A stretch of DNA of 64,000 nt from Candidatus Omnitrophota bacterium (GTDB lineage: Bacteria; Omnitrophota; Gorgyraeia; Pluralincolimonadales; Pluralincolimonadaceae), in assembly GCA_041651455.1 (NCBI GenBank), contig JBAZJG010000008.1, positions 283-64,282 of the forward strand, read 5' to 3'. The notes under the pieces were generated by a model that was given only the letters and a program-made list of their open reading frames with translations, was not told the DNA's origin and did not search any database. Numbering within the stretch: the first letter of the stretch is position 1; each line of letters begins with the position of its first letter. The position numbers were made by a program, and so were the translations under genes. Of this stretch, positions 231-48,039 are shown piece after piece.

Positions 231-1011
231 CCGGTGTCCCCTCCGCCGGTTTTTCCGGCGCGCTTTCTACCGCGGCCTTGAGCTTCGGGCCGATATTGTT
301 CGGGTTGCGCACTACCTCGATCTCGCCGAAGATATTATGCTGCCTGACCATGACTTCCTTCAACCTTATCATCTCGAGAAGCGCGAGGAACGTCGCTATC
401 AGCTCCACCTTGCTCCTCGACTTCTTGAATATGTCCTTGAAATTTATTACCGGCTGTTCGACAAGCATATGGAACAGCTCGTGGACCTTCTCCTCGACGG
501 TGAACTCGTCCTTTACCACCTCGAGGAACGCCTCGCGCGACACGCTCTTGAGTATCGTCGAGAACGCGTTTATGAGGTCGAATATGGAAGCTTCGAAATA
601 CGGCCCCTCGGTCTGGTCGATGTACTGCGTCTCGTCGACCGAGCGCGGGAAGACCATCGACCGCCTGCGTTCGAGCTCGGAGAGTTCCCCGGCCGCTTCC
701 TTGAACTTCTTGTATTCGATGAGCCTGCGCACGAGCTCCGCGCGCGGGTCCTCTTCCTCTATCTCTTCCGGCGGCTGTTCGTCCGGCGGCAGCAGCATGC
801 GCGACTTTATATGCATCAGCGTCGCGGCCATCACGATGAACTCGCCGGCGATGTGCAGGTCGAGCAGTTCCATGTATTCGAGGTAATGCAGGTACTGCTC
901 CGTTATCTTCGCTATCGGGATATTGAAGATATCCGCTTCTTCCTTCTTGATAAGGTACAGAAGAAGGTCCAGCGGGCCTTCGAACACGTCAAGCTTTACC
1001 TTGTACGTCAT
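217..1011 (-). CDS. scpA: Segregation and condensation protein A (kleisin)
   Basis: The ORF 217..1050 carries the ScpA hallmark FEGPLDLLLYLIKKEE plus acidic, coiled regions. The likely real start is MTYKVKLDVFEGP at 1011, which makes an ATGA-type overlap with the trpS stop at 1008. Confidence 0.85.
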   Translation of the reverse strand: MTYKVKLDVFEGPLDLLLYLIKKEEADIFNIPIAKITEQYLHYLEYMELLDLHIAGEFIVMAATLMHIKSRMLLPPDEQPPEEIEEEDPRAELVRRLIEYKKFKEAAGELSELERRRSMVFPRSVDETQYIDQTEGPYFEASIFDLINAFSTILKSVSREAFLEVVKDEFTVEEKVHELFHMLVEQPVINFKDIFKKSRSKVELIATFLALLEMIRLKEVMVRQHNIFGEIEVVRNPNNIGPKLKAAVESAPEKPAEGTPDGTV

Positions 1012-1988: not shown

Positions 1989-1991
1989 ATT

Positions 1992-5342: not shown

Positions 5343-5354
5343 AGTTGTTCCCTT

Positions 5355-5819
5355 CTAAAATTCAAGATGCAGCTTCGCTTTCATGATCACTTCGCGCGGC
5401 ACGGACACTTCCCTGCCGTCGGGCAATTCCAGTTTTATGCTGTCTTCGCCGACCCATTTCAGCGCCGCCGAATACTCCCATTTCCCGTCCACGGGCGCGT
5501 TCAAAACCACGTCGAGCTCCTTGCCTATGACCCTCTCGAAATCGCTGGTCCTGGCAAGTTTCCTGTCGAGGCCCGGCGACTGCACCTCAAGCATGTAATG
5601 GCTCTCGATCACGTTCGCCTCTTCCAGCAGGCCTTCTATCCTGCGGCTCAGCGCGCCGCATTCGCCGATGCTTATCCCGCCCCTTTTATCGACGGTAAAG
5701 CGCATGACCATGCCGCCGCTCTCGTGCCTGTATGTCAGGTCGACAAGCTCGACGCCTGCCTCGGAAAGCGCCTGCGACGTAAGTTCCCTTACTTTTTCCA
5801 ATATAACGTTATCTTCCAT
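5355..5819 (-). CDS. rimP: Ribosome maturation factor RimP
   Basis: 154 aa with RimP/YhbC-family sequence (VELVDLTYRHESGGMVMRFTVDK...). It is the first gene of the rimP-nusA-infB operon. Confidence 0.9.
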   Translation of the reverse strand: MEDNVILEKVRELTSQALSEAGVELVDLTYRHESGGMVMRFTVDKRGGISIGECGALSRRIEGLLEEANVIESHYMLEVQSPGLDRKLARTSDFERVIGKELDVVLNAPVDGKWEYSAALKWVGEDSIKLELPDGREVSVPREVIMKAKLHLEF

Positions 5820-5856
5820 GCCTTTTTCGGGTTTTTCGGAAAAAAGACAACAAAAA

Positions 5857-5885
5857 AAGGAGGTAGAACTTACCCACTCCTCCTT
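5857..5885 (-). terminator. Intrinsic-terminator-like hairpin in the rimP operon leader, also just downstream of the stop of the upstream 675-aa gene. The stem is AAGGAGG/CCTCCTT, followed on the minus strand by a U-run (plus-strand A-run 5841-5858).
   Basis: The minus strand reads AAGGAGG-agtgggtaagttcta-CCTCCTT then TTTTTTGTTGTCTTTTTT: a 7-bp GC-rich stem, 15-nt loop and U-tract. It lies between the predicted promoter at 5913-5941 and the rimP ATG at 5819. Confidence 0.5.
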
Positions 5886-5912
5886 GTGTAGTGGACTTAA
5901 ATTGTACTTATA

Positions 5913-5941
5913 TTTATACTACGGACAGGCGCCGCTGTCAA
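5913..5941 (-). promoter_or_regulatory. Sigma70-like promoter for rimP-nusA-infB (-35 TTGACA 5941..5936, 17-nt spacer, -10 TATAAA 5918..5913)
   Basis: The minus strand reads aacccTTGACAgcggcgcctgtccgtagTATAAAtataag. Both hexamers are near-consensus with an optimal 17-bp spacer. It lies in the 127-bp gap upstream of rimP. Confidence 0.5.
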
Positions 5942-5946
5942 GGGTT

Positions 5947-7974
5947 TTATTCGACGATTTTTGAGTAAGATTCCGTCTCAATGGCCTTGTCCGTGAATAC
6001 GGTCCTGGAACCGGCGGCTTTCAGCGATTGCAGGCCGTCAATGACCGGATATACCGCCTTGTCAAGCCATAGCTGGACGAGCGCGGCGTCGAAATCCTTC
6101 TCCGGGCCGCCGCCCTGCCGGCCCCTCATCTGGAACTGGTCGAGCTGTTCCCTGTTCATCTCCAGCATCGACTCCTTCTCCTTGGCTTGCGCCACGAGCT
6201 CGGCCGCAGCTTCCGGCGTGTTGGCCGGGTCATTTATCTTCGCGTTAATGTCGGCCAGCTCTTTCTCGAGCGACTGTATCTCGGTATTCAGCTTATCCGT
6301 CTGCGCGGCCATCATCTCCTTGACCTTTTTCTGCTGTTCGGACATGAACGTGAGCCACCTTACGGCCCAATCGCAGATCCCCTTGCCCTTCTGCAGGATC
6401 GTGTCCACTTTAAGATAGACGACCTTGTTCGCCGGGTCCATAAGGCCGTTGTTGACCGACTTGAAATCCTCATTCTCAAAGAGCGATTTCGCGGCGCCGG
6501 AATACGAGTCCACCGAGCCCTTAATCGGCTCGCGCCCTAGCGAGAACAGGAAATAATCCCCGACGTAGCAGAACGCCGGCTGGAACGCCATGCCGAACGG
6601 CAGGTTCATGTATTTGATATCGACGCCCTTATAGGATTCGGACTGCATGCTCCCGCCCTGCGTGAACTGCGCGAGCATCTTGTCTATAGCTTCTTTCTTG
6701 TCGACCTTCAGGAAGACGACGAACTGCGGCATCGGTATCATCCCGTCAAGGTTTATGTCGGTCAGGCACATGCCCGTCTCGTCTCCGAGCGCCGGGATGA
6801 TGTCGTTCTCTATGCTTATGCCCATCTGTTTCTCGAATCCGGCTATCATGTCGTTGAAGGTCGGGCCCTGGTTCACCTTGGCCGCTTCATTGCCCATCTC
6901 TTCCTTTATGTATTTCCAGTACGCCTTCCATTCAAAGGTATCCCAGCTGTACCATATCGTATTTGCCGGGGCCAGTTTCATCGCCGTGTTCTTGCGCGGC
7001 TTGACCGAATAGAAATCCCTGAAGAACGGTATCAGCTTCGCCTTGTCGAGGGTTAACTGCATCCTCTCCTTGGTTATCTTGCCGGGATATTTCGCGTAGC
7101 TGAACGACTTGAACCCGCCGTAGACGCCGAGCGTCTTGTCGAGCTGGTCCCGGAAGATACGGCCCGGGTCCGGCTGGGCACCGCTTGCTTCCTTGGGCGC
7201 CGGTACGGCGTCCGCGATGTGCTTGATGCCTGCCATCATGAGCCCGATATCGCCGAAGGCGACCGTCTCCGCACCTTTAGGGAACTTCGCCATCGCGTCG
7301 GTATAGTCCTTGTCCTGCGCGAGCGAGAGGAACTTCTTGTCGGCCACGTCGCAGCAGGAGGTAGCCGCCTTCTTGCCCAGGCCTATGACGAGAATATCCT
7401 TTATCTGGACGTAGGCGATGCTGACCTTATCGTCGAGCTTGACGACGGTCAACTTCTTGCCCTTGTAATTCTCCTCCGCGACCTCGTATTTCCTGCCGGC
7501 CTTGTTGAATACCTTCGCGAGGAAATCTATGAATTTCGTCTCGGGCTTCACCCTCGTGGCCAGCGTGACATTCGAAGCCATTTCAATGACACCTGAGGGT
7601 GTCATCTCAACTTTGCCCGACGGGTAAACCGCTACCGCGATCTCCTTGCCGAAATATTTCTCGAGGACGAGCCCGCCTATGAAGCTTGAAAGCTCCGTCC
7701 GGGCGGCCCTGAAGTTCTCGACATCTTCCTTCTTCGCGCCGCTCTTCTCCATGAGCATCTCAATGTCTATCTTCTCGAGGTTCTTATAGAGACGCGAGGC
7801 CTTGAACTCCTTGACCTGCCTGTCCACCTCGGAGAACTTCATGAAAAAGACGGCATCCGCCGGAAGTACGGACTCGACGGGAGTCGGCTTGGACGCAAGC
7901 GTGAAAAGGACGGCCGCGGCAACCGCGACGGCCGCAACGGATATGGCTGTAATTATAATAGCGGATTTCTTCAT
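5947..7974 (-). CDS. Large N-terminally membrane-anchored extracytoplasmic protein with a C-terminal coiled coil (family not confidently recognised; native-GC copy of a paralog pair)
   Basis: 675 aa. It has an N-terminal TM segment (MKKSAIIITAISVAAVAVAAAVLF), a long globular region, and a C-terminal heptad-rich segment (LEKELADINAKIN...). About 58% GC. It is clearly paralogous to 10116..12125 (shared blocks SRLYKN, KEIAVAVYPSG, IPALGDE, LPFGMAFQPAFCYVGD, VRWLTF). Confidence 0.8.
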   Translation of the reverse strand: MKKSAIIITAISVAAVAVAAAVLFTLASKPTPVESVLPADAVFFMKFSEVDRQVKEFKASRLYKNLEKIDIEMLMEKSGAKKEDVENFRAARTELSSFIGGLVLEKYFGKEIAVAVYPSGKVEMTPSGVIEMASNVTLATRVKPETKFIDFLAKVFNKAGRKYEVAEENYKGKKLTVVKLDDKVSIAYVQIKDILVIGLGKKAATSCCDVADKKFLSLAQDKDYTDAMAKFPKGAETVAFGDIGLMMAGIKHIADAVPAPKEASGAQPDPGRIFRDQLDKTLGVYGGFKSFSYAKYPGKITKERMQLTLDKAKLIPFFRDFYSVKPRKNTAMKLAPANTIWYSWDTFEWKAYWKYIKEEMGNEAAKVNQGPTFNDMIAGFEKQMGISIENDIIPALGDETGMCLTDINLDGMIPMPQFVVFLKVDKKEAIDKMLAQFTQGGSMQSESYKGVDIKYMNLPFGMAFQPAFCYVGDYFLFSLGREPIKGSVDSYSGAAKSLFENEDFKSVNNGLMDPANKVVYLKVDTILQKGKGICDWAVRWLTFMSEQQKKVKEMMAAQTDKLNTEIQSLEKELADINAKINDPANTPEAAAELVAQAKEKESMLEMNREQLDQFQMRGRQGGGPEKDFDAALVQLWLDKAVYPVIDGLQSLKAAGSRTVFTDKAIETESYSKIVE

Positions 7975-8028
7975 GGGACTCTCCTTGGGTTAATTAAGAG
8001 GCATTATACCACAACTTTAGGGGAGTTT

Positions 8029-8292
8029 CTACGCCCATTCTGAGGCATATCTGTCAACAAGGTCTCTAATCATCCTCTGGTATTTCGTGTGATGCCTGTT
8101 TGCCTCACGCTTGAAAAATTCTATGCTAGATTTTTTCAGCGCGATTGTTATCTTCTGCGTCTCTTCCGACTTAGCAAGCTCAACCGGTGGCGGAAGAAGA
8201 TCCTTTATTCTCTTTAATCCGCCCACGGGCATGTCCGAAACATCAGTCCTCTTTTTCATAGTACGCTTTGCCCTTTCTCCAATAACCGGCAC
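8029..8292 (-). CDS. brnA: BrnA antitoxin (ribbon-helix-helix, type II toxin-antitoxin)
   Basis: 87-aa ORF. Its C-terminal half, QKITIALKKSSIEFFKREANRHHTKYQRMIRDLVDRYASEW, matches the BrnA pattern (ITIRLD..vl.wFK..A...G.gYQT.IN.iLR.y). It overlaps the upstream brnT 3' end by about 50 nt, so the true start may be the internal Met (MKKRTD or MPVGG). Confidence 0.75.
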   Translation of the reverse strand: MPVIGERAKRTMKKRTDVSDMPVGGLKRIKDLLPPPVELAKSEETQKITIALKKSSIEFFKREANRHHTKYQRMIRDLVDRYASEWA

Positions 8293-8527
8293 CGATTATC
8301 CTTATCATCCCCTGCCGGTATGTAAACCTTACTGTCATTACTTTATTCCCGGCCTTTCCGATACAGAAAAACCTTTCCTCATGCTCCGAATGGCCGGAAT
8401 CAACGTATATCTTTCTTTTTGTATCAAGGAAAGCTCGCGAGGCAATCTTAAAATCTACCCCGTGCTTCCTTATATTTTCCCTTTCTTTCGATTCGTCCCA
8501 GGTGAACATACCTGTGATTTTATCCAT
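8243..8527 (-). CDS. brnT: BrnT toxin (DUF497 ribonuclease, type II toxin-antitoxin)
   Basis: 94 aa: FTWDESKERENIRKHGVDFKIASRAFLD...DSGHSEHEERFFCIGKAGNKVMTVRFTYRQGMIRIIGAGYWRKGKAYYEK. This is the canonical BrnT/DUF497 signature (F.WD..K...N..KHGV.F.EA..vF.D......D..HS..EeR....G.......vvyt.R.....RIISAR.A...E...Y). The toxin-first gene order matches BrnTA. Confidence 0.8.
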   Translation of the reverse strand: MDKITGMFTWDESKERENIRKHGVDFKIASRAFLDTKRKIYVDSGHSEHEERFFCIGKAGNKVMTVRFTYRQGMIRIIGAGYWRKGKAYYEKED

Positions 8528-8531
8528 GTTT

Positions 8532-8560
8532 AGTATATCCTTTGGTCCTCATATTGTCAA
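8532..8560 (-). promoter_or_regulatory. Sigma70-like promoter directly upstream of brnT (-35 TTGACA 8560..8555, 17-nt spacer, -10 TATACT 8537..8532)
   Basis: The minus strand reads TTGACAatatgaggaccaaaggaTATACTaaacATG. The -10 ends 4 nt before the brnT ATG, which would give a leaderless or near-leaderless mRNA. The AAGGA inside the spacer could alternatively be the SD for a promoter lying further upstream in the AT-rich stretch 8560-8600. Confidence 0.4.
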
Positions 8561-8600
8561 TATTTATATACATACTATTATACATTATATTGGGCATAAT

Positions 8601-8642
8601 AAATCCCTCCTTTACCTATATAGACGGCATGAGGAGGGATTT
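8601..8642. repeat. Perfect 10-bp inverted repeat AAATCCCTCC (22-nt spacer) GGAGGGATTT between the stop of the 297-aa gene and the brnTA promoter
   Basis: Read directly: aaatccctcc tttacctatatagacggcatga ggagggattt, then tctttc. It could be a terminator hairpin for the upstream operon, or an operator for BrnA (RHH antitoxins bind palindromes). Confidence 0.6.
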
Positions 8643-8657
8643 TCTTTCAAATATTGC

Positions 8658-9533
8658 TTAAGGCGTATTATTAGTTTCGGTAATGCAAGTAAACTTGATT
8701 GGTAACGGGGCCGATTCAACTTCGAATCTTTTTCCTTTATATTTGCCTGATATTATGACAACTAAATCGTGCCTCTCTCCCGCTTTAACAAAATCGGAGA
8801 GTGGCTTGCATGGCCAGACGGAAGAATGCCTGTAATCCCAATCTAAGGAAAGGTCGTATGTGAATTCCTGCTCTTCGTTTGTCAGGGTAATACCTAATGG
8901 CACCGAGCGCCTGTGCGGACTGCTCCAAATCCTTTCCATATAAAAAAAGATGCTAACATCTTCTAATTCAACCGGTTCGCGGCTGCCCGTAGACAATAGC
9001 ACGCTGATCGGGATAGGGCCGAAAGGTGAGCATCTTTTGTTCTCTGTCTCAATACTCATGACGATGAAATCTTTTGGGACAATTGTCAAAAAAACCGTTT
9101 GCGACTTTATCCTGATCTTGTCATTGACCTCATATATTGCGGCAATGGAATAATCCCCCTTCCTGCTGAAATCATAGTAGCCCGATACTCTAATTGAAGT
9201 ATGAAATGTTCCTGATGGCGGGAAGCCTGGTTTTCTAATCAACTGTAATAAATCGCCATCGGGACCTTTAATTTTAAGATTCTCCACCAGTCCTTCTTTT
9301 TGGCAGGATATCTCGGATATTATATTTTTGTCCAATCCTTCAACCGGTTCAATATGAAATGCGAGTTCTATTGGTTCTCCTACATTGAATATCTCTTTCT
9401 GCAATTCAAGCCTGCAATGTAATCCGCCCGAAGAGATACCCCATTCTTCAGCAAAACATGTCATAAATATAAAATTGGCGGCGAATACCGATATTATCAA
9501 TAAATACTTCGTGTAATCCTTTTTAGGAGCCAT
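8658..9533 (-). CDS. Secreted hypothetical protein encoded directly after the PEP-CTERM protein gene
   Basis: The ORF is 8658..9551. The likely start is MAPKKDYTKYLLIISVFAANFIFMTCFA (signal peptide, possible lipobox) at 9533, 7 nt after the PEP-CTERM gene stop. About 40% GC. No recognisable domain. Confidence 0.55.
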   Translation of the reverse strand: MAPKKDYTKYLLIISVFAANFIFMTCFAEEWGISSGGLHCRLELQKEIFNVGEPIELAFHIEPVEGLDKNIISEISCQKEGLVENLKIKGPDGDLLQLIRKPGFPPSGTFHTSIRVSGYYDFSRKGDYSIAAIYEVNDKIRIKSQTVFLTIVPKDFIVMSIETENKRCSPFGPIPISVLLSTGSREPVELEDVSIFFYMERIWSSPHRRSVPLGITLTNEEQEFTYDLSLDWDYRHSSVWPCKPLSDFVKAGERHDLVVIISGKYKGKRFEVESAPLPIKFTCITETNNTP

Positions 9534-10116
9534 GGTTTTTCCTAAAACCAAGCAGCGGGAGGCCGGCGAGAATCAGTATAATGGTCGAGGGCTCGGGGAT
9601 AGGTGAAACCAGCAATTGGGCACTATGCCCCTCATTGTATTCCAGTGAGGAGAATATATCCGTTTTCGCATATTCGGAACGAATATTGAACCCGACAAAT
9701 GGGGTTGAAACTCCCTGCATAAAACTAGTAACTTCAAATAATGCGTCTTCGCCGTATCCAAGATCTTCCGGCAAAATAAGAACACCTAAATAATTCCCTG
9801 CATCATAATCAGATGATGTCAGCTGCCCGTCGCTGCTTCCATAGCCGTATATTTGAACGGTTTTACTCCAAAGAGGTAATCCGTATGGGTTGACAGACAA
9901 ATACGCTGTGCTTATTGGCCATAAAATCTGGCTGGTTGGGAATTCCACTACACCTCTTGTGGGTTCGCATGCCGTAAGATAGCAGTTGGTCAACACGCCC
10001 CCATCTAGGTACACTGAACCGTCATCGGAAGGATTGATGACTAACGCAGAAGCTGAAGCAACCTGAGTCATAGCCACGATAAATACGGCCATAATGCCGA
10101 ATTCGATCTTGTTCAT
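9523..10116 (-). CDS. PEP-CTERM sorting-domain protein (exosortase substrate)
   Basis: The C-terminus VSPIPEPSTIILILAGLPLLGFRKNHGS is a PEP motif, hydrophobic helix and basic cluster, which defines PEP-CTERM. The N-terminal signal peptide is MNKIEFGIMAVFIVAMTQVASASA. The ATG at 10116 overlaps the TAA stop of the upstream paralog by 1 nt (TAATG); the track start at 10140 is a TTG. Confidence 0.75.
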   Translation of the reverse strand: MNKIEFGIMAVFIVAMTQVASASALVINPSDDGSVYLDGGVLTNCYLTACEPTRGVVEFPTSQILWPISTAYLSVNPYGLPLWSKTVQIYGYGSSDGQLTSSDYDAGNYLGVLILPEDLGYGEDALFEVTSFMQGVSTPFVGFNIRSEYAKTDIFSSLEYNEGHSAQLLVSPIPEPSTIILILAGLPLLGFRKNHGS

Positions 10117-12125
10117 TATTTGAAAAAGGTCTCTGTACAAATCACGTTCTCCGTGAAGACTGTCTTTGAACTTGAGACATTATTCGAAGAAAGGCCTTCC
10201 ATGATAGGATAGGCCGCCTTTTCCACCCAAAGCCTTATCAAGGGCACATCCATATCCTGTCTCGTTACCGCGACACGATGTTTCTCCTGCTCTTCCAAGT
10301 GGGCCAACTGCTCTTTGTCGATCTTCAACATGGAATTCTTGTCCCATATCTTTAAATCGAGTTCAGATTTTACCTCTGCCAAAACAGCGGGGTCGGCACG
10401 CTGCGCTTTCATATCTGCCAGCTCCTTTTCCAGTTCCTTGATGCCTGCCCTTAACCTGTCCATCTGGAGCAATATCATCTCTTCGTATTTCTTCTGTTTT
10501 TCGTAGTACGCCTTGTTCTCTTCGGAAATATACGTAAGCCACCTCAGACCCCAATCGCAAAAATCCCTGGCTTCCCGCAACAAAGCATCGGTATCCACAA
10601 AACGAACCTGGTTTGCCGGCTTGTCGGGGTTGCTACTAACAAGCCTGAAATCCTCGCTGTCAAGAAGCGACTTCGCGGATCCGGAACAAGAATCTATGGA
10701 ATTCTTTAATGGCATGCGGCCCAAAGAGAGCAAAAGATTATCTCCAACGTAACAATATGCCGGTTGGAACGCGAGGCCGAATGGGAGGTCCAGGTATTTT
10801 ATCTCAACATTATTGTACGTCTCCGTTTTCACGGCCTCCTCCCCTTCGATGTCACTCCGGAAGAATTTGCCCAAAACCAGGTCTATCGCCTGTTTGTCGT
10901 TTACTTTGACTATATAGATGAACTGCGGTGATGGTATAAGGCCGTCGTAATTCACGTCTATCAGGCACAAGGCCCCTTCATCCCCGAGAGCGGGTATCAG
11001 GTCATTCTCTATGCTGAAGTCCACCCAACTCTCGAACTCGGCAACGATATCGTCAAATCCGTGGGACTCAACCCCTTCCGGCGTTCCTTTTATCATGGCT
11101 TCCTTCAGGTACTGCCAGTATGCCCTCCACGCGACCGTATCCCATCCGTACCATATCGCATTAGGCGGGATGAACTTAAGCGTATTGTTCCCGCGCGGGG
11201 CCACTGAATAGCTTTCCCGGAGGAACGGGATCATCTTGGATCTGTCGATTTTTACGGTCATAACGCTCTTTTTTATCTCCCCGGGATATCTGGCGTAGAA
11301 GAAGGTCCCGAAACCGCCGTATTCGCCCAGGCGCAGGCCCATATTTTCCTTGAACGCTTTTAATATATCCGCTGATATCCCTTTCCCGGCCGGTTCCGGG
11401 ATGGCGGTTACGGCATTTTTCAATCCTTCCGCTATTCTCCCGATATCACCGAAAGCGGCCATCTCGGCGCCTTTCTCAAGCCCTGACACCGCCCCAATGA
11501 AATCCTTGTCCTGCGCCAACGCGGGAATTTTCCTGCCGGCGGCATCATAGCAGGACATGACAACCATCTTATCCGTGCCCGCCACCATCACATCCTTGAT
11601 CCGGACCATAAACACGCTCGTCCTGTCCCCTATCTTCACGACGGATATCTTCCTGCCGCTGCAGTCCTCTTCTTTCTCCTCAAATATCTTTCCCGGTTTT
11701 TTGAACATAATGGCAAACAGGTCGGCTATTTTTGATTCCGGTTTCACCTTCGCGGCGAATAATACGCCCGAAGGATACACGGCAACGGCTATCTCCTTCC
11801 CGAAATACTTCTCAAAAGGAAGCCCGTCGATAAAACCCGATATGTCCGCTTTCCATACTCCTACAGCTTGCGCCTGTTCCTTCTTAGCTCCGCTCTTTTC
11901 AAGCAGCATTCCTATATCGATGGCTTCCACATTCTTATAGAGCCTCGATGACCTAAACTCCTCGAATTGCCTGTCGGCATCGAACAATTTCACGAAGAAG
12001 ACCGGGCCGGCAGGCAGCGCGGACTCGATCGCCTGCGGTTTTGCGATATAACCGACATAAATGCCGGCCGCCGTCGCCGCAATGGCAATAAAAATGACTG
12101 TGACTGCTATAAACGGTTTTTTCAT
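10116..12125 (-). CDS. Large membrane-anchored coiled-coil protein, lower-GC xenologous paralog of 5947..7974
   Basis: 669 aa with the same architecture (N-terminal TM, shared motif blocks, C-terminal coiled coil ELEKELADMKAQ...). About 48-50% GC versus about 58% for the other copy. Its start overlaps the TPR gene stop (ATGA at 12122-12125). Confidence 0.8.
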   Translation of the reverse strand: MKKPFIAVTVIFIAIAATAAGIYVGYIAKPQAIESALPAGPVFFVKLFDADRQFEEFRSSRLYKNVEAIDIGMLLEKSGAKKEQAQAVGVWKADISGFIDGLPFEKYFGKEIAVAVYPSGVLFAAKVKPESKIADLFAIMFKKPGKIFEEKEEDCSGRKISVVKIGDRTSVFMVRIKDVMVAGTDKMVVMSCYDAAGRKIPALAQDKDFIGAVSGLEKGAEMAAFGDIGRIAEGLKNAVTAIPEPAGKGISADILKAFKENMGLRLGEYGGFGTFFYARYPGEIKKSVMTVKIDRSKMIPFLRESYSVAPRGNNTLKFIPPNAIWYGWDTVAWRAYWQYLKEAMIKGTPEGVESHGFDDIVAEFESWVDFSIENDLIPALGDEGALCLIDVNYDGLIPSPQFIYIVKVNDKQAIDLVLGKFFRSDIEGEEAVKTETYNNVEIKYLDLPFGLAFQPAYCYVGDNLLLSLGRMPLKNSIDSCSGSAKSLLDSEDFRLVSSNPDKPANQVRFVDTDALLREARDFCDWGLRWLTYISEENKAYYEKQKKYEEMILLQMDRLRAGIKELEKELADMKAQRADPAVLAEVKSELDLKIWDKNSMLKIDKEQLAHLEEQEKHRVAVTRQDMDVPLIRLWVEKAAYPIMEGLSSNNVSSSKTVFTENVICTETFFK

Positions 12126-13165
12126 GGGGTTGGCCTTTTTTTAGGGATCTGCAGTACATTATCTTTGTTCTCTTCCGCCTTCCTGAAATACATATCCGCT
12201 TTCTCGCGGTCGCCTTTTTCCGCGTATATCTCCCCGAGATACTGGTAAACCTCATACGATATAGAATTAAGACCGACGGCCGTTTCCAGGTACTCCCTCG
12301 CGCTCTCCTTGTCTCCGAGCCTGTAAGCGGTAATGCCGAGATTGTCCCATGTGTCTACGCCATACGGGTTATATATAACTGACATCGTGAAATCGCTCAA
12401 TGCCTGCTTGTAATTGCCTTGGCAAAAATACGTGAACCCGCGGTTATTCATGCCTTTATAGCTGAATGGATCTATAACAAGCGCCCGGTTATAATCCCTG
12501 ACAGCCTTATCAAACTCGCCCATATCCAGATATACCCCGGCACGGGCATAATATCCGCTAAACTCTTTCGGTCTCAGTTTTATTAACTCGCTAAAATCCT
12601 TGACGGCTTTTTCATATTCGCCCGCTTCCGAATAAGATATCCCGCGATTCCATAGCGTATTCGCGCTTACCGGGTCAGCGCTCAATGCCTCATTATAGCT
12701 TTCTATTGCAGAATTATACTCGCCTACATCGGTCATGGCGTTGCCCAGGTTATTATACGGAAGTTTGAAATTCGGGTTCATTTCGACCGCTTTTTGGAAG
12801 TCCGCAATAGCTTTTTCATTCTCCCCTTTTTGCCTGTACGCGCAACCGCGGTTATAATAGAGGTTCGGATTCCTGGAATTTGCCTCAAGGCCTTTTGAGT
12901 ATTCGGCAATGGCCTTGTCGTAATCACCCATTTTTATATACGCGTTCCCTGCCATTTTATAGGCATCATAGAACATGGGGTTTACCTCTATGGCCTTATC
13001 GAACTCCTTGATAGCTTCTTCATACCGGTGTTTGTTGAGATGGACGACGCCGCGGTTGAAATACTGGTTTGCGGTAAGTTTTTCTTCCCTTACTTCTTCA
13101 GCAAGGCAGCTTGAGGAGAGAATACATGCTGTTACGTAGAAAAGTAAAACCTTTGAAAGTTTCAT
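12122..13165 (-). CDS. Secreted tetratricopeptide-repeat (TPR) protein
   Basis: 347 aa. Signal peptide MKLSKVLLFYVTACILSSSCLA, then about eight 34-aa TPR units (recurring AxxxYxxAIxxxP / NxG.AY patterns). Confidence 0.85.
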   Translation of the reverse strand: MKLSKVLLFYVTACILSSSCLAEEVREEKLTANQYFNRGVVHLNKHRYEEAIKEFDKAIEVNPMFYDAYKMAGNAYIKMGDYDKAIAEYSKGLEANSRNPNLYYNRGCAYRQKGENEKAIADFQKAVEMNPNFKLPYNNLGNAMTDVGEYNSAIESYNEALSADPVSANTLWNRGISYSEAGEYEKAVKDFSELIKLRPKEFSGYYARAGVYLDMGEFDKAVRDYNRALVIDPFSYKGMNNRGFTYFCQGNYKQALSDFTMSVIYNPYGVDTWDNLGITAYRLGDKESAREYLETAVGLNSISYEVYQYLGEIYAEKGDREKADMYFRKAEENKDNVLQIPKKRPTP

Positions 13166-13205
13166 TTCGCACCTCGAAACGTTTTTAATTCTTTTCTAAT
13201 TAATA

Positions 13206-13244
13206 GGGACGCATGACCTGGGACGCCCCGTTATGACCTGTCCC
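13206..13244. promoter_or_regulatory. Direct-repeat element in the TPR operon upstream region: GGGACGC-ATGACCTG ... GGACGCC-ccgtt-ATGACCTG-TCCC (ATGACCTG copies at 13213 and 13233, 20-bp spacing; GGGAC/GTCCC inverted ends)
   Basis: Read directly from the 146-bp gap between the hydrolase stop and the TPR gene start. The two-helical-turn spacing suggests a dimeric or tandem DNA-binding regulator site. A 12-bp perfect palindrome AACGGAACCGTT follows at 13273-13284. Confidence 0.35.
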
Positions 13245-13311
13245 TTTTATCGCATCCCATATTTCTTATAAAAACGGAACCGTTGGCACTATTAGCAGTT
13301 TCATTTTCGCA

Positions 13312-14238
13312 TCACAAAAGTTCCCTGGCCGCATTAAGGGTATCGTCGCCGTAAGCCATGTGGTAGAAATGCCCCTGCCCCTGTATGGGGGTGAGCTTCG
13401 CGTTCGGGACGGTCTTCGAAAGCCACTCGCTGAACATCAGGGGGACCCAGCGGTCCTCCGTGCCGTGGCGTATATCGACGCGCATCTTTATCTTGCTGAG
13501 GTCGAAGCCCCATTCAAGGTAGATAACCTGCGCGTCGTATGACGGCCCTTTGGCCCCATTCCTGAACAATTCCTGGAAATCCCTCATCAGGATATTGGCC
13601 ATTTCGGGCATTAGGAACAGGTCCATGTCGGGCTTGCACATGCTAGAGCCCATCATCTTTACGAACGCCTGGGGGTTCTTCATCGTCTTCATTTGTAATC
13701 CTATAAGGGAGAACGGTATCTGGAAGAGCCACAGCGGGAGTTTCGCGCCGATCTTCGCGTAGAAACGGTCCATCGTCCCGAGCTTCTTGAGCGCCTCGGG
13801 GTCCCTGTAGAGAGGCACCGCGCCCGCAAGGTCAACGGCGAACAAAAGCCGGTCCGGAATGGAGTATGCGCATGCCAATACCGTAGGGCCGCCGCCGGAT
13901 ATCCCCATGACGCCGAACTTGCCGATGCCTAGATGGTCCGCAAGCGCAGCGATGTCCGCGGCTCCGTCGAGTATCTTCCTGCCGGGCAGGAAATCCGACT
14001 GCCCCACTCCGGGACGGTCGGGCACTATAATGCGGAAATTCTTCCTCTTTGCCGCGTGATGAAGCAGCATTACGTGGATATGCGAGCCGGTCCCGTGGGC
14101 AAATATTATCGGCGTCCCGGACGGATCGCCGTATTCGTAATACGCCAGGCGGCGCCCGCCGTCAAACGCAAGGAATTTTACTTTCGCCTGAAGCTCCTCT
14201 ATCTCTTCCTGGCTGATCAAGTCGGGCTTGTCGGGCAT
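13312..14238 (-). CDS. Alpha/beta-fold hydrolase
   Basis: 308 aa. Nucleophile elbow GISGGG (G-x-S-x-G), HGTGS oxyanion region and a C-terminal His. A strong SD (GGAGG) lies upstream at about 14245-14249. Confidence 0.8.
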   Translation of the reverse strand: MPDKPDLISQEEIEELQAKVKFLAFDGGRRLAYYEYGDPSGTPIIFAHGTGSHIHVMLLHHAAKRKNFRIIVPDRPGVGQSDFLPGRKILDGAADIAALADHLGIGKFGVMGISGGGPTVLACAYSIPDRLLFAVDLAGAVPLYRDPEALKKLGTMDRFYAKIGAKLPLWLFQIPFSLIGLQMKTMKNPQAFVKMMGSSMCKPDMDLFLMPEMANILMRDFQELFRNGAKGPSYDAQVIYLEWGFDLSKIKMRVDIRHGTEDRWVPLMFSEWLSKTVPNAKLTPIQGQGHFYHMAYGDDTLNAARELL

Positions 14239-14250
14239 AATTCCTCCTGA

Positions 14251-14799
14251 TTAAAATACGCTCTCCAGACAAAAACACGTCAATTCCTCTTCTTTGCCCC
14301 ATTCCACACAGGTAGGTTTGTTCCTGCACTCGGGGCATAGCAGGGTAATGTCGTCCTTATTAATATCAAGTGTACCACGCGTCTGGTGAAGGTCAAATAG
14401 CAATTTCAGGTACTTGCCGGCCACGAGGCGATGCAGGCTGTCCTTCTTCTTGAGCCCTAACCATTGGAAGACGCCCCGGTCGTTGCGTGAAGTATTGCAG
14501 GTAGGACACGACAGAACCGAATTATCCGCCGAATCGGGGCCGCCTCGGCTTCGTGGGATGAGGTGATCGACTTGTAGGCCTTCGAGCGCGCCGCAAAAGA
14601 CGCACTCCTTATCCAACTCCTGCTCCCTCTGCCACTCCCTTATCGTGCCGGACATCGTAGCGCTGCCGTCGCGCAGGGCCTTGAACCGGTCCGTGACAAA
14701 TCCGTAGTTGATGTTGCCCTTGAACGCGCTACGGGATATAAGCTTGGCGTATTCGTAGAGGATTTCTTCTTTTATGGTTTTGACGTAGGGTGGGGGCAT
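14251..14799 (-). CDS. HNH endonuclease with extra Cys-rich zinc-ribbon segments
   Basis: 182 aa. HNH core: CVFCG...QVDHLIPRSRGGPDSADNSVLSCPTCNTSRNDRG. A second Cys cluster follows (CPECRNKPTC...CFC). The roughly 70-aa N-terminus is unassigned. It sits at the edge of the low-GC defence-like block. Confidence 0.7.
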   Translation of the reverse strand: MPPPYVKTIKEEILYEYAKLISRSAFKGNINYGFVTDRFKALRDGSATMSGTIREWQREQELDKECVFCGALEGLQVDHLIPRSRGGPDSADNSVLSCPTCNTSRNDRGVFQWLGLKKKDSLHRLVAGKYLKLLFDLHQTRGTLDINKDDITLLCPECRNKPTCVEWGKEEELTCFCLESVF

Positions 14800-14870
14800 A
14801 GTATTGAGTTAGTTAATAATTTAAATATGTTGTCGCTAAATTTATTTCGATCTGTTCTTCCTCATTTCTA

Positions 14871-16565
14871 TTAGATTTTATACTTTTCGCTACATTGCTT
14901 AACTAATTTGTTCGATTTCGATAATTCGTTATCACTTAAATCTAATTTAAGGGAATCTATTATTTTGATTATACTCACTATTGCTTTGTTGAATTTTTTA
15001 TTTGAATTGATTATTTTTAAGCAATTTTGACAATATTCTTCGGCTTTCTTGCTTTCAAACGGAGGACATTTTTCTTTCATAATTTCATAGCGCAGCATCA
15101 TTAGGATAAAATATCTCAGCTTCTTGAACTTCCTATCTAGCTGCCCACGTCTGAATAGTTTATCTATGTTATATAACGCATAGGCGGACGTGTAGTACGG
15201 TAACATATAGTGATTATCTTTAAAGAGGTCGGGACCGAATTCAGAAAATAAGGTTCCAAAATATCTTGTTGCCATATCTGGTTTGTCAAAATAAAAACTG
15301 GCCATAGTCTTTATTTGGGTTGTTTTATCAATTATTCGTTTCTTCTCTACTCCTTTACTATTATATTGTTTAGAACGCCTTTCATAATAAAGCCTTTGCT
15401 TTTCTGGAAAAGTAGTATAATAGTCTTCCAAGCTTTTTTGAAAGTCTGAAAATGCTATCAAATCTTGTTCTTTTATTTCAGTTTGTCTGTTTGTAGACCG
15501 AATTACTTTAGATGTTAAATCTTTATTGTTTGTGGATATTAATTTTAGGGGCAATTTTACTTTTGGTGACACTAATGATCTGTTTTCAAACAATACATGA
15601 GATGTTTGGCAACCATTAATTATTTGGTAGCTGCTTATGGTAAATCTATCTCTTGTGGTTAGCATTGATTCAGCAACTATCGTTATACCATTGTTCAAAA
15701 CAACAAAGGCTTCTTTATCTTTTGTTTTTAAAGTATTTTGAATTTCCAAATTGACCTTATTGTCTCCCTGAAAATCTCTTACATTATCATAAAATACATT
15801 GGGAATTAAATCGCCGTTATCATCTGTCATTAATTTAATTATTGTTTCGGCCTCGATAATTCCCAAATAAGATTCTGCCACTCCAGTTATTACCGGCAGT
15901 GTAACTCTATTCGGGAATTCGAAAGCTTTTGTAACCGCCTGACCTATTTTTTTGTAAATGCTCTGTATCTCCCTAGCGTCGACAAGGCTTATTATAGTAT
16001 TAGAAAACAAGTTCTCATTTTCGATATTACTTTTCATCTCTTCTGTCTTAGCTTCGATATTATCATCTTCTGTCTTCACACCAAGAGTCACATAATATAG
16101 ATGGCATATTGGTTTCTCCTTAAGCAAATTCGAATTATCTATCAATTTGTTAAATAGCCTGATCTTTGAACGGGCTATTTTAGGCCATTTTATTTTAGGA
16201 TTTTCACTAACAAAATCTGAAACGGCCCAACCAAAGTTTCCAATTTCTTTTGTTTCGAAGCTTTTAGAGGTCTTAGATTGAATAAAAACAACCTCTGCGT
16301 GAACATCTCTATGCGATTTCAAGAAGTCTTCCAGCATATCTTGAGTTTCAATAACTTGTCTATTCAATATCAAAGCAAAGCCATCTAAGCCCAGAGCATC
16401 GTCTTTTCCTATATTTAATTCCTCGATATCGAACCGTTCTTCAGTCTTATTTTCAAGTAATGCAAAATTTACAAAATGCTCAAATTGCGTAGACTCATTT
16501 TTTTCATTTTCCAGCCCATTCGATGATAAAAATTCATTAAGATAACTTCTGGTAATTCTATCCAT
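14871..16565 (-). CDS. AIPR-like abortive-infection (phage resistance) family protein (family assignment tentative)
   Basis: 564 aa with no Walker motifs. The central block VVLNNGITIVAE ... YQIINGCQT resembles the conserved NG.QT core of the AIPR family; this is my recollection and no search was run. It is very AT-rich (about 33% GC) and has a strong SD (GGAGGAAAAC) before the ATG. Confidence 0.5.
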   Translation of the reverse strand: MDRITRSYLNEFLSSNGLENEKNESTQFEHFVNFALLENKTEERFDIEELNIGKDDALGLDGFALILNRQVIETQDMLEDFLKSHRDVHAEVVFIQSKTSKSFETKEIGNFGWAVSDFVSENPKIKWPKIARSKIRLFNKLIDNSNLLKEKPICHLYYVTLGVKTEDDNIEAKTEEMKSNIENENLFSNTIISLVDAREIQSIYKKIGQAVTKAFEFPNRVTLPVITGVAESYLGIIEAETIIKLMTDDNGDLIPNVFYDNVRDFQGDNKVNLEIQNTLKTKDKEAFVVLNNGITIVAESMLTTRDRFTISSYQIINGCQTSHVLFENRSLVSPKVKLPLKLISTNNKDLTSKVIRSTNRQTEIKEQDLIAFSDFQKSLEDYYTTFPEKQRLYYERRSKQYNSKGVEKKRIIDKTTQIKTMASFYFDKPDMATRYFGTLFSEFGPDLFKDNHYMLPYYTSAYALYNIDKLFRRGQLDRKFKKLRYFILMMLRYEIMKEKCPPFESKKAEEYCQNCLKIINSNKKFNKAIVSIIKIIDSLKLDLSDNELSKSNKLVKQCSEKYKI

Positions 16566-16651
16566 GTTTTCCTCCAGTTATATTTTGCTTTTAGTGACTC
16601 ATGACTTTAGAACGCTTCACTATAGAACTTGCCTCTTTTGACACGTCTCGT

Positions 16652-16879
16652 TTATTCTTTCTTTTTTGACCTCACGATCCTTATATCCCCTTTTAAATCT
16701 TTAACTTCATAACTTTCCGAAAGCAATAATCTTAATTTATTGGAATTGTAGGTTTTACTCCAAAAGGGTCTATCAAAATGCACTTCACCTCGCGCTGAAC
16801 CGGCATGGTGAATATGGAGAATCCTTCCTTTTTCAGATAAAAGAGATAAATACCTTTTACAATATTTAATTTTTATCAT
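16652..16879 (-). CDS. Small hypothetical protein (75 aa) between the AIPR-like gene and the 2-TM protein gene
   Basis: The ORF MIKIKYCKRYLSLLSEKGRILHIHHAGSARGEVHFDRPFW... has His-rich and basic character and low GC. It could be a small nucleic-acid-binding partner or a gene remnant. No confident homology. Confidence 0.3.
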   Translation of the reverse strand: MIKIKYCKRYLSLLSEKGRILHIHHAGSARGEVHFDRPFWSKTYNSNKLRLLLSESYEVKDLKGDIRIVRSKKKE

Positions 16880-16954
16880 CGTTCTCGCCTAGCCCATTTT
16901 ACCGTTTGTTTAAGTGGCAGAATCCAAGTACAATTAATCCATTTATTAGAATAT

Positions 16955-17731
16955 TTAACTAATACCGAATTCCTTTTTAAGACCATTAAAATCGTATATC
17001 TGTATATTTACTATCATATCTTTTCCTAATAGAAATTGATCAATTCTATTTTTTAATATTTCCTTTTCTTCATCATTAATCGGCGTTACGATTATAAGAT
17101 AAAAGAATAAATCTCTCTCGCTTTTTTCTAGGTTTCTCCATATATCCTCAAAATACTTTAAAGTTTTTCCTAGCCCATTAAATGGCGTATTTAATCTTGG
17201 AAAGTACTTTACTTCAAATACTGAGAACTGCAAGCTTGAATTTATTATGCCATCAGCGTAATATTTATTGCCTTTAAGTTCAAAACTTCTTTGTTTAAGA
17301 AACATATCTCCATAATCGCTTTCTAACTTTTTAAGAGCTAACTCTTCAGCAAGAAAATATTCAACTTTCGGATTTAATATTATACTTGCAGTAGCACTAC
17401 TTGTTTTATCTTCGGTAATATCTGAAACATCTTTATCCTTTTTATCTATTACATCTTTTATAGTTAAAGGTTTAACATTTTTTATCAAACCAGAAAATGC
17501 TTCATCTGTCTTAAAATCTGAAGGTGCGTATAGCACATGGTGTTTAAGGATTAATACTGAAAAAAACAGCATAACAAGCAAAACAGGGAATATCATGACA
17601 AACCAAACAAACAAATTTTGTATATTATCCGGAAGAATAGGCAATACGGCGCTTCCGCAAATCTCTGATATGCCGGCAAAGATTGCGATAATTGTTAAAG
17701 GATTTTTTATAGTATTTTTGGGTAAGTACAT
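16955..17731 (-). CDS. Membrane protein with two N-terminal TM helices and a cytoplasmic domain of about 170 aa (unrecognised; effector-like)
   Basis: 258 aa. TM1 is LTIIAIFAGISEICGSAVLPIL and TM2 is FVWFVMIFPVLLVMLFFSVLIL, followed by a charged soluble domain. About 30% GC, an SD (GAGGTG) upstream, and a TTGACA hexamer about 45 nt upstream. Confidence 0.6.
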   Translation of the reverse strand: MYLPKNTIKNPLTIIAIFAGISEICGSAVLPILPDNIQNLFVWFVMIFPVLLVMLFFSVLILKHHVLYAPSDFKTDEAFSGLIKNVKPLTIKDVIDKKDKDVSDITEDKTSSATASIILNPKVEYFLAEELALKKLESDYGDMFLKQRSFELKGNKYYADGIINSSLQFSVFEVKYFPRLNTPFNGLGKTLKYFEDIWRNLEKSERDLFFYLIIVTPINDEEKEILKNRIDQFLLGKDMIVNIQIYDFNGLKKEFGIS

Positions 17732-17831
17732 AATCGCACCTCAATCATCTAAAGCTAATTTACATTGCACTTCTGTCAAACTGTTAATGTACGAGGGGCG
17801 CAGTCAATATTTTCTGCTTAAGATTATTTTG

Positions 17832-19556
17832 CTATGCTTGCGATGACAATAATTCCTCAACTTCTCCTATTGTTTCGTCTATCTTGATTACTTTAATTTC
17901 TTTCGTCTTGCGGTCCTTGATCTCCACCTCGCCGGTGGCGATGCGTTTTTCACCAATGATTATTTGTATCGGGAAGCCGATGAGGTCGGAATCTTTGAAC
18001 TTAACGCCGGCGCGTTCGGGGCGGTCATCGAGGATGCATTCTATACCGGCGGAAGTCAGCTCGTTGTAAATCTTTTCGGCCGCTTCCATAGATGCCTGGT
18101 GCGCAGTGTTGAGCGGGAGTATTGCGACTGTGTAAGGCGCTATGGTCTTGTTCCAGATAATGCCGTCCTTGTCGTGGCTCTGCTCGATGAGCGAGGCGAC
18201 GATACGGTTGACGCCTATGCCATAGCAACCCATGATGCACGGCTTTTCCTTGCCGTTCTCGTCGAGGAAATTACATTTTAGCTTGGTGGAATATTTGGTG
18301 CCGAGTTTGAAGACCTGCCCTACCTCGATGCCGTGCTTGAAGAGCAGTTTCTTGCCGCCGTGCGTGTCGCCTTCGACGGCGTTGCGGATGTCTGTCACTA
18401 TAATATTAGCGCCCGTGAGGGGGAAATCCCTTCCCGGCACGACGTTCTTCGTGTGGTAGTCGGTCTTGTTGGCACCGGTAACACCTATCGCCATCGCGGC
18501 TACGGCGTGGTCTATTATAATCTTCGAGGCCTTCCCGGCAAGCCCTACAGGCCCTGCAAAGCCGACCTTGGCGCCCGTGATTTTCTCGATCGCTTCCGGT
18601 GAGGCGAGCTCATTATGCGCGCCGCCGAGCGCCTGTGTCAGTTTCTCGGGGTTGAGGTCGTGGTCGCCGCGCACAAGCGCCACGACGATATCCTTTCCGA
18701 CCGAGAATATGAGCGTCTTTATCATCTCCTTCGGCTTCGACTTCAGGAACGAGCAGACCGCTTCGATAGAACCGACGTTCGGAGTATGCACATCCTCGGC
18801 CTTCGGGGCGTTGGCAACAGCCGGCTCTTTCGGCAGCGGGTCTACCGCGGCCTTTTCGAGGTTCGCGGCGTAGCTGTTATCTTCTGTGTAGACAATGATG
18901 TCCTCGCCGGAGTCGCAGGGAGCCGTGAACTGGTGCGAACCCGAGCCGCCCATCTCGCCCGACTCGGCCTCCACTATCACGAAATCGAGCCCGCAGCGCG
19001 TGAATATGCGCTTGTAGGTCTCGTACATGTTCCAGTATTCCTTGTCGAGGCACTCGGCCGTCGGGTGGAAACTGTAAGAATCCTTCATTATGAATTCGCG
19101 GCTGCGCAGGACACCGAAGCGCGGGCGGAACTCGTCGCGGAACTTGAAAGATATCTGGTAGAGGTTGACCGGGAGCTGCTTATACGACTTGATCTCGCCT
19201 GCGGCGACACTCGTTATTACCTCCTCTGCCGTCGGAGCGATGACGTTCGTATGCCCGTGGCGGTCCTTGAATTTTGCCATCGTCTCGCCGTAATCCCTAT
19301 CTCGGCCGGTCTGCTGCCAGAGCTCTATCGGCTGGACCGCAGGAAGCATGACCTCGAGTGCGCCCGCCTTGTCCATCTCCTCGCGGATGATCGCCTCGAC
19401 CTTATTTATGACGCGCATACCGAGAGGCAAATATGAATACGAGCCTGTCGCGAGCTTGCGTATGAGCCCCGCGCGGATCATTAGCTTGTGGCTTAGGATC
19501 TCGGCTTCCGCCGGGTCCTCTTTAAGCGTCGATATAAGCGTCTTTGTCCATCTCAT
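17832..19556 (-). CDS. proS: Proline--tRNA ligase (bacterial type with INS/editing domain)
   Basis: 574 aa. N-terminus TKTLISTLKEDPAEAEILSHKLMIRAGLIRKLATGSYSYLPLG, class II motifs and a C-terminal anticodon-binding domain. Confidence 0.95.
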   Translation of the reverse strand: MRWTKTLISTLKEDPAEAEILSHKLMIRAGLIRKLATGSYSYLPLGMRVINKVEAIIREEMDKAGALEVMLPAVQPIELWQQTGRDRDYGETMAKFKDRHGHTNVIAPTAEEVITSVAAGEIKSYKQLPVNLYQISFKFRDEFRPRFGVLRSREFIMKDSYSFHPTAECLDKEYWNMYETYKRIFTRCGLDFVIVEAESGEMGGSGSHQFTAPCDSGEDIIVYTEDNSYAANLEKAAVDPLPKEPAVANAPKAEDVHTPNVGSIEAVCSFLKSKPKEMIKTLIFSVGKDIVVALVRGDHDLNPEKLTQALGGAHNELASPEAIEKITGAKVGFAGPVGLAGKASKIIIDHAVAAMAIGVTGANKTDYHTKNVVPGRDFPLTGANIIVTDIRNAVEGDTHGGKKLLFKHGIEVGQVFKLGTKYSTKLKCNFLDENGKEKPCIMGCYGIGVNRIVASLIEQSHDKDGIIWNKTIAPYTVAILPLNTAHQASMEAAEKIYNELTSAGIECILDDRPERAGVKFKDSDLIGFPIQIIIGEKRIATGEVEIKDRKTKEIKVIKIDETIGEVEELLSSQA

Positions 19557-48036: not shown

Positions 48037-48039
48037 CTG

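Follow-up and report, generated by a model that had tools for sequence, protein, structure and literature searches.

The window analysed here, 64,000 nucleotides (nt) of a contig of Candidatus Omnitrophota, carries every gene of its first 24 kb on the minus strand. Read in the direction of transcription, dxr, rseP, ispG and proS (17832-19556) lead into the interval 7975-17831, beyond which lie the DUF3352 gene DUF3352_A (5947-7974), rimP, nusA, infB and trpS. Between these core flanks stand, in the same direction and on the same strand, genes for a membrane-anchored protein with a PD-(D/E)xK fold (p258), a 75-amino-acid (aa) open reading frame (ORF; p75), an AbiU/AIPR protein, a free-standing HNH endonuclease, an alpha/beta hydrolase, a TPR protein, a second DUF3352 protein (DUF3352_B), a PEP-CTERM protein, an exported protein of 297 aa (p297), and the toxin BrnT with its putative antitoxin BrnA. 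The first-pass annotation treated all of this as a single composite island and suggested its acquisition by recombination through the two DUF3352 paralogs. We consider it probable that the stretch from proS to DUF3352_A/rimP is a layered hotspot bounded by core genes, its variants exchanged by homologous recombination, and not one island.

The fall in GC content on which the island call rested is borne out by formal sliding-window and tetranucleotide analysis. In 2-kb windows outside 7975-17831, core GC is 56.6 ± 1.2% and the interval as a whole has 43.1%; 2-kb windows inside it span 31.6-51% (z -5 to -20), with tetranucleotide distance rising in step with the GC fall (z +4 to +24). Two GC zones had been proposed. 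The second, 14871-17731, is confirmed at 31.7%, but the first (8029-14800, 48.2%) is heterogeneous, with 42.5% over 8029-10140, 48.5% over 10116-13165 and 55.8% over 13312-14799. There are at least three composition zones in the interval, and 13312-14799, which holds the alpha/beta hydrolase and HNH genes (GC at third codon positions, GC3, of 0.76 and 0.67; core genes 0.70-0.80), is host-like and not anomalous. Coding sequence makes up 93% of the interval, in which no gap exceeds 146 nt.

ARAGORN found no tRNA or tmRNA gene in the 64-kb window and no Rfam family matched there; Pfam, NCBIfam and PHROG searches of both strands, small ORFs included, returned no integrase or transposase domain, in agreement with what had been claimed from the letters alone. 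A search of the flanks for direct or inverted repeats, as had been suggested, gave no convincing repeat, only short matches at chance level and the similarity between the two DUF3352 paralogs. Composition is atypical except over 13312-14799, and a mobility gene, a tRNA or tmRNA anchor and flanking repeats are all absent.

We compared the interval with related genomes, all of them metagenome-assembled genomes (MAGs) or metagenome contigs and several of them short (such as L011, 3.9 kb, and L013, 3.3 kb). The close relatives L001 and L003 came from a scan of one genome per species, and L006, L007 and L008 from a metagenome scan, which with a DUF3352 profile covered at least three loci. These five align to the window at 79-92% nt identity up to 8017 (L008 to 7985), and the alignment resumes at 17860, 17874 or 17892 with nothing co-linear between; for L001, L003 and L007, identity is about 90% over 1-8017 and again from 17860/17892 onward. 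The edges given by composition match these comparative breakpoints almost exactly (8017; 17860/17892), and the edges first drawn for the island were to that extent correct. L001 (CAZYUB010000016.1) is labelled 'uncultured Planctomycetia bacterium', but it is about 92% nt identical to the window over 15 kb of core genes, and the window's own proteins carry Omnitrophota names; the label has probably been assigned to the wrong taxon.

Between the same core flanks (proS and DUF3352_A-rimP-nusA-infB), six versions could be distinguished: those of the window, L001, L003/L006, L007, L008 and L019. In L001, proS is followed by a TPR gene and p521, a GH2/GH5-like TIM barrel with an Ig-like domain, before DUF3352_A. 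L007 has TPR, PEP-CTERM, ORF6N and p512 genes; L003, with L006 in the same arrangement, has a truncated HNH, p223, p268, TPR, PEP-CTERM and p512; and L008 has a small HNH-like ORF, DUF5343, a Swt1-type HEPN gene, HNH, a membrane protein, TPR and PEP-CTERM. The more distant loci L019-L022 (the P0011 species, core genes 70-83% nt identical to the window) run from proS through an alpha/beta hydrolase, TPR, PEP-CTERM and DUF3352 to rimP. Content therefore does differ between close relatives, as the proposed comparison was meant to reveal, but the interval is empty in none of the six versions and several gene types recur. Sporadic presence applies to the AbiU block, DUF3352_B, p297 and BrnTA, all missing from L001, L003, L007 and L008; unlike the AbiU block, the hydrolase, TPR and PEP-CTERM gene types are common to relatives. 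One further difference lies outside the interval, where L019 (5009-5338) has a 109-aa ORF with 35% GC between ispG and proS; the gap between these genes in the window is 4 nt.

The alpha/beta hydrolase (13312-14238; Pfam Abhydrolase_1, E 3e-13) has 57.5% GC and a GC3 of 0.757. Its counterpart between proS and the TPR gene in L019-L022 is 90% identical in aa and 86% in nt, the same nt level to L019 as proS itself (86%), and the window's hydrolase is 73% aa identical to L002. Because of this counterpart and its host-like GC and GC3, the gene is an old resident of the locus that has been lost in the nearest relatives, not island cargo. The presence of hydrolase, TPR and PEP-CTERM genes at the same locus in L019-L022 is also what tells against a single acquired island: BrnT, the PEP-CTERM anchor and AIPR/AbiU are indeed the accessory cargo that was reported, but the hydrolase, TPR and PEP-CTERM types are old residents.

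The TPR gene (12122-13165; Pfam TPR, E 9e-64) separates the versions into two types. The window protein is 79% aa identical to that of L011 and 67% to that of L013, and only 41-43% identical to those of L001, L003, L007, L008 and L019, which we call type 1 and which are 77-97% identical among themselves. Identity between types is 36-43% aa, against 67-97% within a type and about 90% in the flanks, and the window carries a type-2 allele. In type-1 loci GC3 is 0.60-0.65 for the TPR gene and 0.44-0.57 for the PEP-CTERM gene, below core genes in every genome examined. The low GC3 of these genes is therefore a lasting property of old residents and not a sign of recent import.

The PEP-CTERM gene (9523-10140) is a divergent allele of a locus-resident gene with positional counterparts in L003, L007, L008 and L019. 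It scores 20.8 bits with TIGR02595 (cut-off 16) and 19.1 bits with Pfam PEP-CTERM, below the cut-off of 20.7, and the sorting motif PIPEPSTIILILAGLPLLGFRK is readable in the sequence. The protein matches its relatives in the C-terminal anchor only, where 9545-9603 is 88% nt identical to L007. With signal-peptide or transmembrane N-termini and the PEP-CTERM anchor visible among them, the cassette products are predicted to be exported or surface-exposed proteins. Upstream of the TPR gene, the intergenic junction 13166-13311 holds its conserved ribosome-binding site (RBS) and leader and a 'GACAGGTC...CGTCCC' element, and 13151-13267 is 77-80% nt identical to the proS/TPR junction of L001 and L007. 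Together with 9545-9603, 8587-8655 and 7975-8017, this is one of the short conserved junctions inside the otherwise variable region.

DUF3352_A (Pfam DUF3352, E 6e-18) is native: it is 89-93% identical in nt and aa in L001, L003 and L007 and always stands beside rimP. A DUF3352 copy was also seen beside rimP in every Omnitrophota locus examined with rimP in range. DUF3352_B (10116-12125, 669 aa) overlaps the TPR gene by 4 nt and is a tandem paralog at 46% aa identity over its full length, which confirms the paralog pair reported for 5947-7974 and 10116-12125. What does not hold is the idea that DUF3352_B was imported next to its paralog. In a neighbour-joining tree it forms a separate deep clade with genes of L011 (69-84% aa) and L013 (54% aa), and on both contigs the B-type gene lies directly downstream of the (type-2) TPR gene; counting the window, this pairing occurs in three lineages. 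In L011 it is followed by a truncated PEP-CTERM gene, a BrnT remnant and BrnA. In L013 the gene immediately after B is of A type and, past roughly its first 90 nt, matches L019 at 99% nt identity; L019 itself carries type 1. Because of the arrangement in L011 and L013 and the deep B clade, we read the type-2 TPR-B cassette as old, resident at this locus and co-existing with type 1 in at least two species. An AlphaFold2 (AF2) model of DUF3352_B (pLDDT 78.5) has a transmembrane anchor, alpha/beta domains and a coiled coil of about 100 residues (hairpin), with no significant match to the fold in the PDB; weak Wzc-like matches (TM about 0.13) were not taken as evidence. The L011-encoded DUF3352 protein (P0002) is attributed by NCBI to a Dehalococcoidales MAG.

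The right-hand part of the interval is of another kind. The block 14800-17831 (31.7% GC; GC3 0.24-0.30 against 0.70-0.80 in the core) is missing from L001, L003, L007, L008 and L019, and is a recent foreign block. Its AbiU/AIPR gene (14871-16565) matches its families at full length: PADLOC AbiU with 417 bits over residues 2-562 (E 3.6e-125), Pfam AIPR with 143.8 bits (cut-off 25; E 1e-41) and PHROG 1841 with E 1e-77. The closest homologue is 75% aa identical, and members of the family occur in many phyla and on 62 plasmids, with restriction-modification, HEPN/nucleotidyltransferase and IS21 genes as neighbours; the block has no DNA similarity to known phages. p75 occupies 16652-16879. For p258 (16955-17731), two N-terminal helices are predicted as a membrane anchor ahead of a C-terminal PD-(D/E)xK fold, in which E129, D160 and E173-x-K175 are conserved in 35 homologues; its AF2 model (pLDDT 81) matches Can2/Card1 nuclease domains (Foldseek, E 4e-5) and AF1548 (E 2e-3). 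It has 650 homologues, located in defence islands of many phyla, and no Pfam family, and we regard it as a candidate stand-alone defence gene encoding a putative nuclease. A functional link of AbiU to p258 and p75 was considered and rejected: five AIPR loci elsewhere lack both, and p258 homologues occur without AIPR.

The defence genes in the slot between proS and HNH vary from genome to genome: the window has AbiU there, and L008 (L008:1783-2980) has PDC-M34A/B (DUF5343 plus a Swt1-like HEPN; PADLOC E 3e-74 and 1e-69), with a 103-aa HNH-like ORF just upstream. Judging from their families, these genes are expected to abort or limit phage infection. The HNH endonuclease gene (14251-14799; Pfam HNH, E 5e-13), which encodes a C-terminal zinc ribbon and marks the variable block, is 92% aa and 90% nt identical between the window and L008, genomes whose core genes are only 77-83% identical. 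L003 and L006 have a truncated HNH copy fused with the tail of proS. Similarity to HNH genes of phage genomes is at the domain level only, and no relatives were found in viral contigs.

All right-hand breakpoints fall within the last ~10 codons of proS, which in the window (17832-17860) have been rewritten by the insertion. The tail '...GDVS*' is common to L001, L007 and L019, and those of the window, L003 and L008 each differ; '...GDVS*' is the ancestral tail, and the L001-type 3' end contains GCAATAGGGGACGTGTCATAAGGGGACAGGTCG. L008 retains a clear remnant of the ancestral tail on the distal side of its inserted block (reached in 2 of 2000 shuffles). A possible degenerate remnant at ~13245-13267 in the window is weak and not significant alone, with 61 of 2000 shuffles reaching it. 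These remnants hint at an old insertion into the proS tail.

Near the left edge lie two small independent events. The BrnT toxin gene (8243-8527; Pfam PF04365, E 2.5e-21, 76.2 bits, cut-off 34.5) precedes the putative BrnA antitoxin gene (8029-8259, 76 aa, in an ORF open to 8292), which it overlaps by 17 nt; the BrnA ORF scores 15.1 bits with BrnA_antitoxin (cut-off 26.1), and both BrnA_antitoxin and CopG_antitoxin are sub-threshold at E 0.03. The best promoter-like site, 8560->8532, lies upstream of the pair. L011 has the same pair in decayed form (BrnA 87% aa), and L001, L003 and L007 hold the glycosidase-like p512/p521 at this position. After the BrnA stop, both the window and L011 keep the 3' end of p512, '...GTGTGATATAAT...TTAATTAA', corresponding to its last ~30 nt, and the junction to this remnant is shared by the two. 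BrnT/BrnA have replaced the glycosidase-like gene p512. The left junction itself (7975-8017) combines the remnant of the last codons of p512/p521 with an extended -10, TGATATAAT, and the RBS of DUF3352_A; the promoter-like site is 8031->8003, with a TG before the -10, and 8017 is the last position of homology shared with L001, L003 and L007.

The second small event is p297 (8658-9551), an exported protein with a signal-peptide-like N-terminus, no family match in Pfam, PADLOC, NCBIfam or PHROG, and only 19 homologue clusters among 1.84e9 representatives. Its gene is bracketed by the conserved junctions 9545-9603 and 8587-8655, which are 20 nt apart in L007, and it is missing from L011. The second of these follows the PEP-CTERM gene in relatives and is 87-92% nt identical to L003 8279-8347 and L007 5085-5155. 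p297 is thus a separate insertion after the PEP-CTERM gene. L007 has its own insertion at 5145-5651, an ORF6N-domain gene (PADLOC candidate PDC-S05, E 6e-61) between the PEP-CTERM gene and p512, and this is a further small independent insertion in the hotspot.

The flanking core genes record how such variants may have moved. Over proS and ispG the window is 80-87% identical to L001 and L003, whereas past 20600 the figure is 92-96%; on the other side, DUF3352_A drops from 94-97% close to rimP to 86-89% in the 5' portion of the gene. The phylogeny of proS is incongruent (window-L019 86%, L003-L019 90%, window-L001 84%), whereas dxr, rseP, nusA, rimP and infB give 90-95% identity within the clade and 75-83% between the clade and L019. 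López-Pérez et al. (2014, PMC4033161) report raised substitutions at the borders of replaced islands as the mark of recombinational exchange, and integrase-independent hotspots bounded by core genes, with GC below that of the chromosome, are described in Pseudomonas aeruginosa (PMC10250203). The raised divergence and scrambled phylogeny of proS and ispG, with no integrase, tRNA or repeats, therefore make homologous recombination through the flanks the best explanation. In comparison with close relatives, homology breaks off 43 nt upstream of the DUF3352_A start codon; between L013 and L019 the breakpoint is about 90 nt inside the gene. Pairing of DUF3352_A with its own orthologues appears to serve as one homology arm, as do proS and ispG on the other side.

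On this basis we propose three layers. The first would be an old backbone of alpha/beta hydrolase, signal-peptide TPR and PEP-CTERM genes, with a glycosidase-like gene in some genomes, existing as two cassette types: TPR - PEP-CTERM (type 1) and TPR - DUF3352_B - PEP-CTERM (type 2, the type of the window). Both would segregate in at least two species, and the backbone would behave like a 'replacement' flexible island, its envelope cassettes expected from their families to vary exposed surface proteins. The second would be 'additive': a slot at the 3' terminus of proS, occupied by a block with HNH, in which the defence genes between proS and HNH vary. The third would comprise the independent small events, BrnT/BrnA for the glycosidase-like gene and p297 after the PEP-CTERM gene. 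Variants may be swapped between strains and even species by RecA-type homologous recombination, with proS/ispG and DUF3352_A as homology arms and the short conserved promoter/RBS junctions as further sites of pairing inside. The first entry of the 32% GC genes into the clade would have taken a route other than homologous recombination.

Several points weigh against this reading. Recombination is deduced from divergence patterns in a handful of sequences, and some of the 'variants' could be population composites, given that they come from MAGs and short contigs. A recognisable defence system occupies the proS/HNH slot in only two of the six versions. The hydrolase and the GACAGGTC element are placed differently with respect to each other in the window and in L019, and we could not derive a single order of events for the two. 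Flank recombination also leaves the arrival of 32% GC DNA unexplained, which must have followed another route.

One alternative is that the block 13268-17860 (AbiU module, HNH and hydrolase) descends from a site-specific integrative element targeting the 3' end of proS, whose integrase has since been lost. Insertion within the last ~10 proS codons, with a new C-terminal tail supplied, would suit such an element; the ancestral tail remnant in L008, and possibly that in the window, resembles an attL/attR duplication; and homologues of p258 and AIPR stand beside integrases or IS21 elsewhere. Yet none of the six versions retains an integrase or a fragment of one, the repeat search found no repeat, the tail remnant in the window does not reach significance by itself, and the block includes a host-like hydrolase that is native to the locus in another species. 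We regard this origin as unlikely.

A more active role could also be assigned to the HNH gene, as a homing-type endonuclease cutting naive proS-tail alleles, upon which gene conversion would copy HNH together with the neighbouring cargo. HNH is the best-conserved item of the block, exceeding the core genes in identity between the window and L008; the block always abuts the same proS site; the flanking proS and ispG show conversion-like mixing; and no integrase is present. Against these stand the frequency of HNH domains in defence systems (weak, domain-level PADLOC matches here include PtuB, Cas9 and type IV restriction enzymes) and the small number of carriers, three genomes, with L003 keeping a dead fragment only. 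We consider homing very unlikely. If true, it would explain why proS tails are rewritten, why the phylogeny of proS is scrambled and why HNH is better conserved than the surrounding core genes, and would amount to an integrase-free spread of defence cassettes. The broader proposition that HNH is the engine of the hotspot, together with the compatible idea of a cassette polymorphism (with versus without DUF3352_B) maintained across species in these ultra-small bacteria, we hold to be only slightly less improbable.

The original proposal of one ~9.9 kb composite island, acquired at once through recombination of DUF3352_B with resident DUF3352_A, is highly improbable. The two paralogs are real and close together, a 152-nt stretch of 71% identity links them, and there is no integrase or tRNA; homologous recombination does fit better than site-specific integration. 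The paralog is nevertheless an implausible substrate, as A and B are 60% identical in nt and their longest exact match is 14 nt. RecA-type recombination needs more identity than this. The breakpoint against relatives lies upstream of A, outside the A/B similarity; B already stands beside A in L013, and in both L011 and L013 it neighbours the type-2 TPR gene; the locus has long housed the hydrolase, TPR and PEP-CTERM genes; and the parts show three compositions and differing distributions among relatives. Least credible of all is a mis-assembly or binning chimera as the source of the low-GC block, which the MAG origin and the very sharp GC jumps at 14800 and 17831 might suggest, since the junctions lie exactly at gene boundaries, the proS reading frame is intact and the order proS-p258-p75-AbiU-HNH recurs with junctions at 100% identity in the ENA assembly L009 (18.2 kb) and in the independent Logan assembly L010 (run SRR8542065).

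A layered hotspot exchanged through its core flanks has close parallels. The P. aeruginosa hotspots cDHS1 and cDHS2 (Johnson et al. 2023, PMC10250203) likewise have core-gene bounds, varied defence systems, lower GC and no defining integrase or element. They differ in size (a median of 6-26 kb, against a 3-kb slot here), and cDHS2 adjoins ssrA, whereas no non-coding RNA gene flanks the present locus. Here two occupied versions were seen, in an uncultured Omnitrophota lineage, and the slot is joined to an envelope replacement cassette. That cassette shares with the replacement flexible islands of López-Pérez, Martin-Cuadrado & Rodriguez-Valera (2014, PMC4033161) a single locus with diverged genes of similar kind, predicted exported or surface products, and a raised number of substitutions in the core genes alongside. 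The classical cases are large clusters for glycosylation (O-antigen, capsule, flagellin glycosylation), in contrast to the 2-5 kb of TPR, DUF3352 and PEP-CTERM proteins found here, whose surface exposure is a prediction. Islands linked to tRNA genes and integrative elements share atypical composition, patchy presence, accessory cargo and insertion at the 3' end of a conserved gene; the present locus differs in having no tRNA, integrase or clean repeats, and in its several independent origins, part of them ancestral.

At the level of single systems, the AbiU gene matches the abortive infection protein of Lactococcus and AIPR (PF10592) at full length, and the AbiU1/AIPR family has been described from plasmids and from the neighbourhood of restriction-modification and toxin-antitoxin genes (Makarova et al. 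2013, PMC3632139), a setting its homologues here share. It differs in that its closest homologue is 75% identical and that p75 and p258 fall outside any described AbiU system. BrnT/BrnA agrees with the known type II toxin-antitoxin system in a BrnT above cut-off, the toxin-first order, the overlap and a small second gene resembling ribbon-helix-helix proteins, and departs from it in an antitoxin that stays sub-threshold.

The region is an ordinary kind of bacterial genome feature and leaves the understanding of how such regions arise unchanged. It does illustrate that composition alone over-calls an island: roughly between a third and a half of the low-GC stretch is DNA long resident at the locus, with a composition of its own. 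It also provides, in the arrangement proS / ... / DUF3352-rimP, a landmark for accessory and defence genes in MAGs of Omnitrophota, a phylum without cultured members and with little known phage biology. What novelty there is lies in a possible driving role of HNH through homing, in the cassette dimorphism across species and in an uncharacterised family of membrane PD-(D/E)xK proteins.

Two deviations were seen elsewhere in the window. The only other 2-kb window with a tetranucleotide z above 3 is 46501-48500 (z = 3.5), where GC is normal at 56.2%. In the region encoding the N-terminus of infB (3600-4200), nt identity to L001 and L003 is 71-80%, against 91-95% in neighbouring sequence, which probably reflects the usual variability of the IF2 N-terminal domain.

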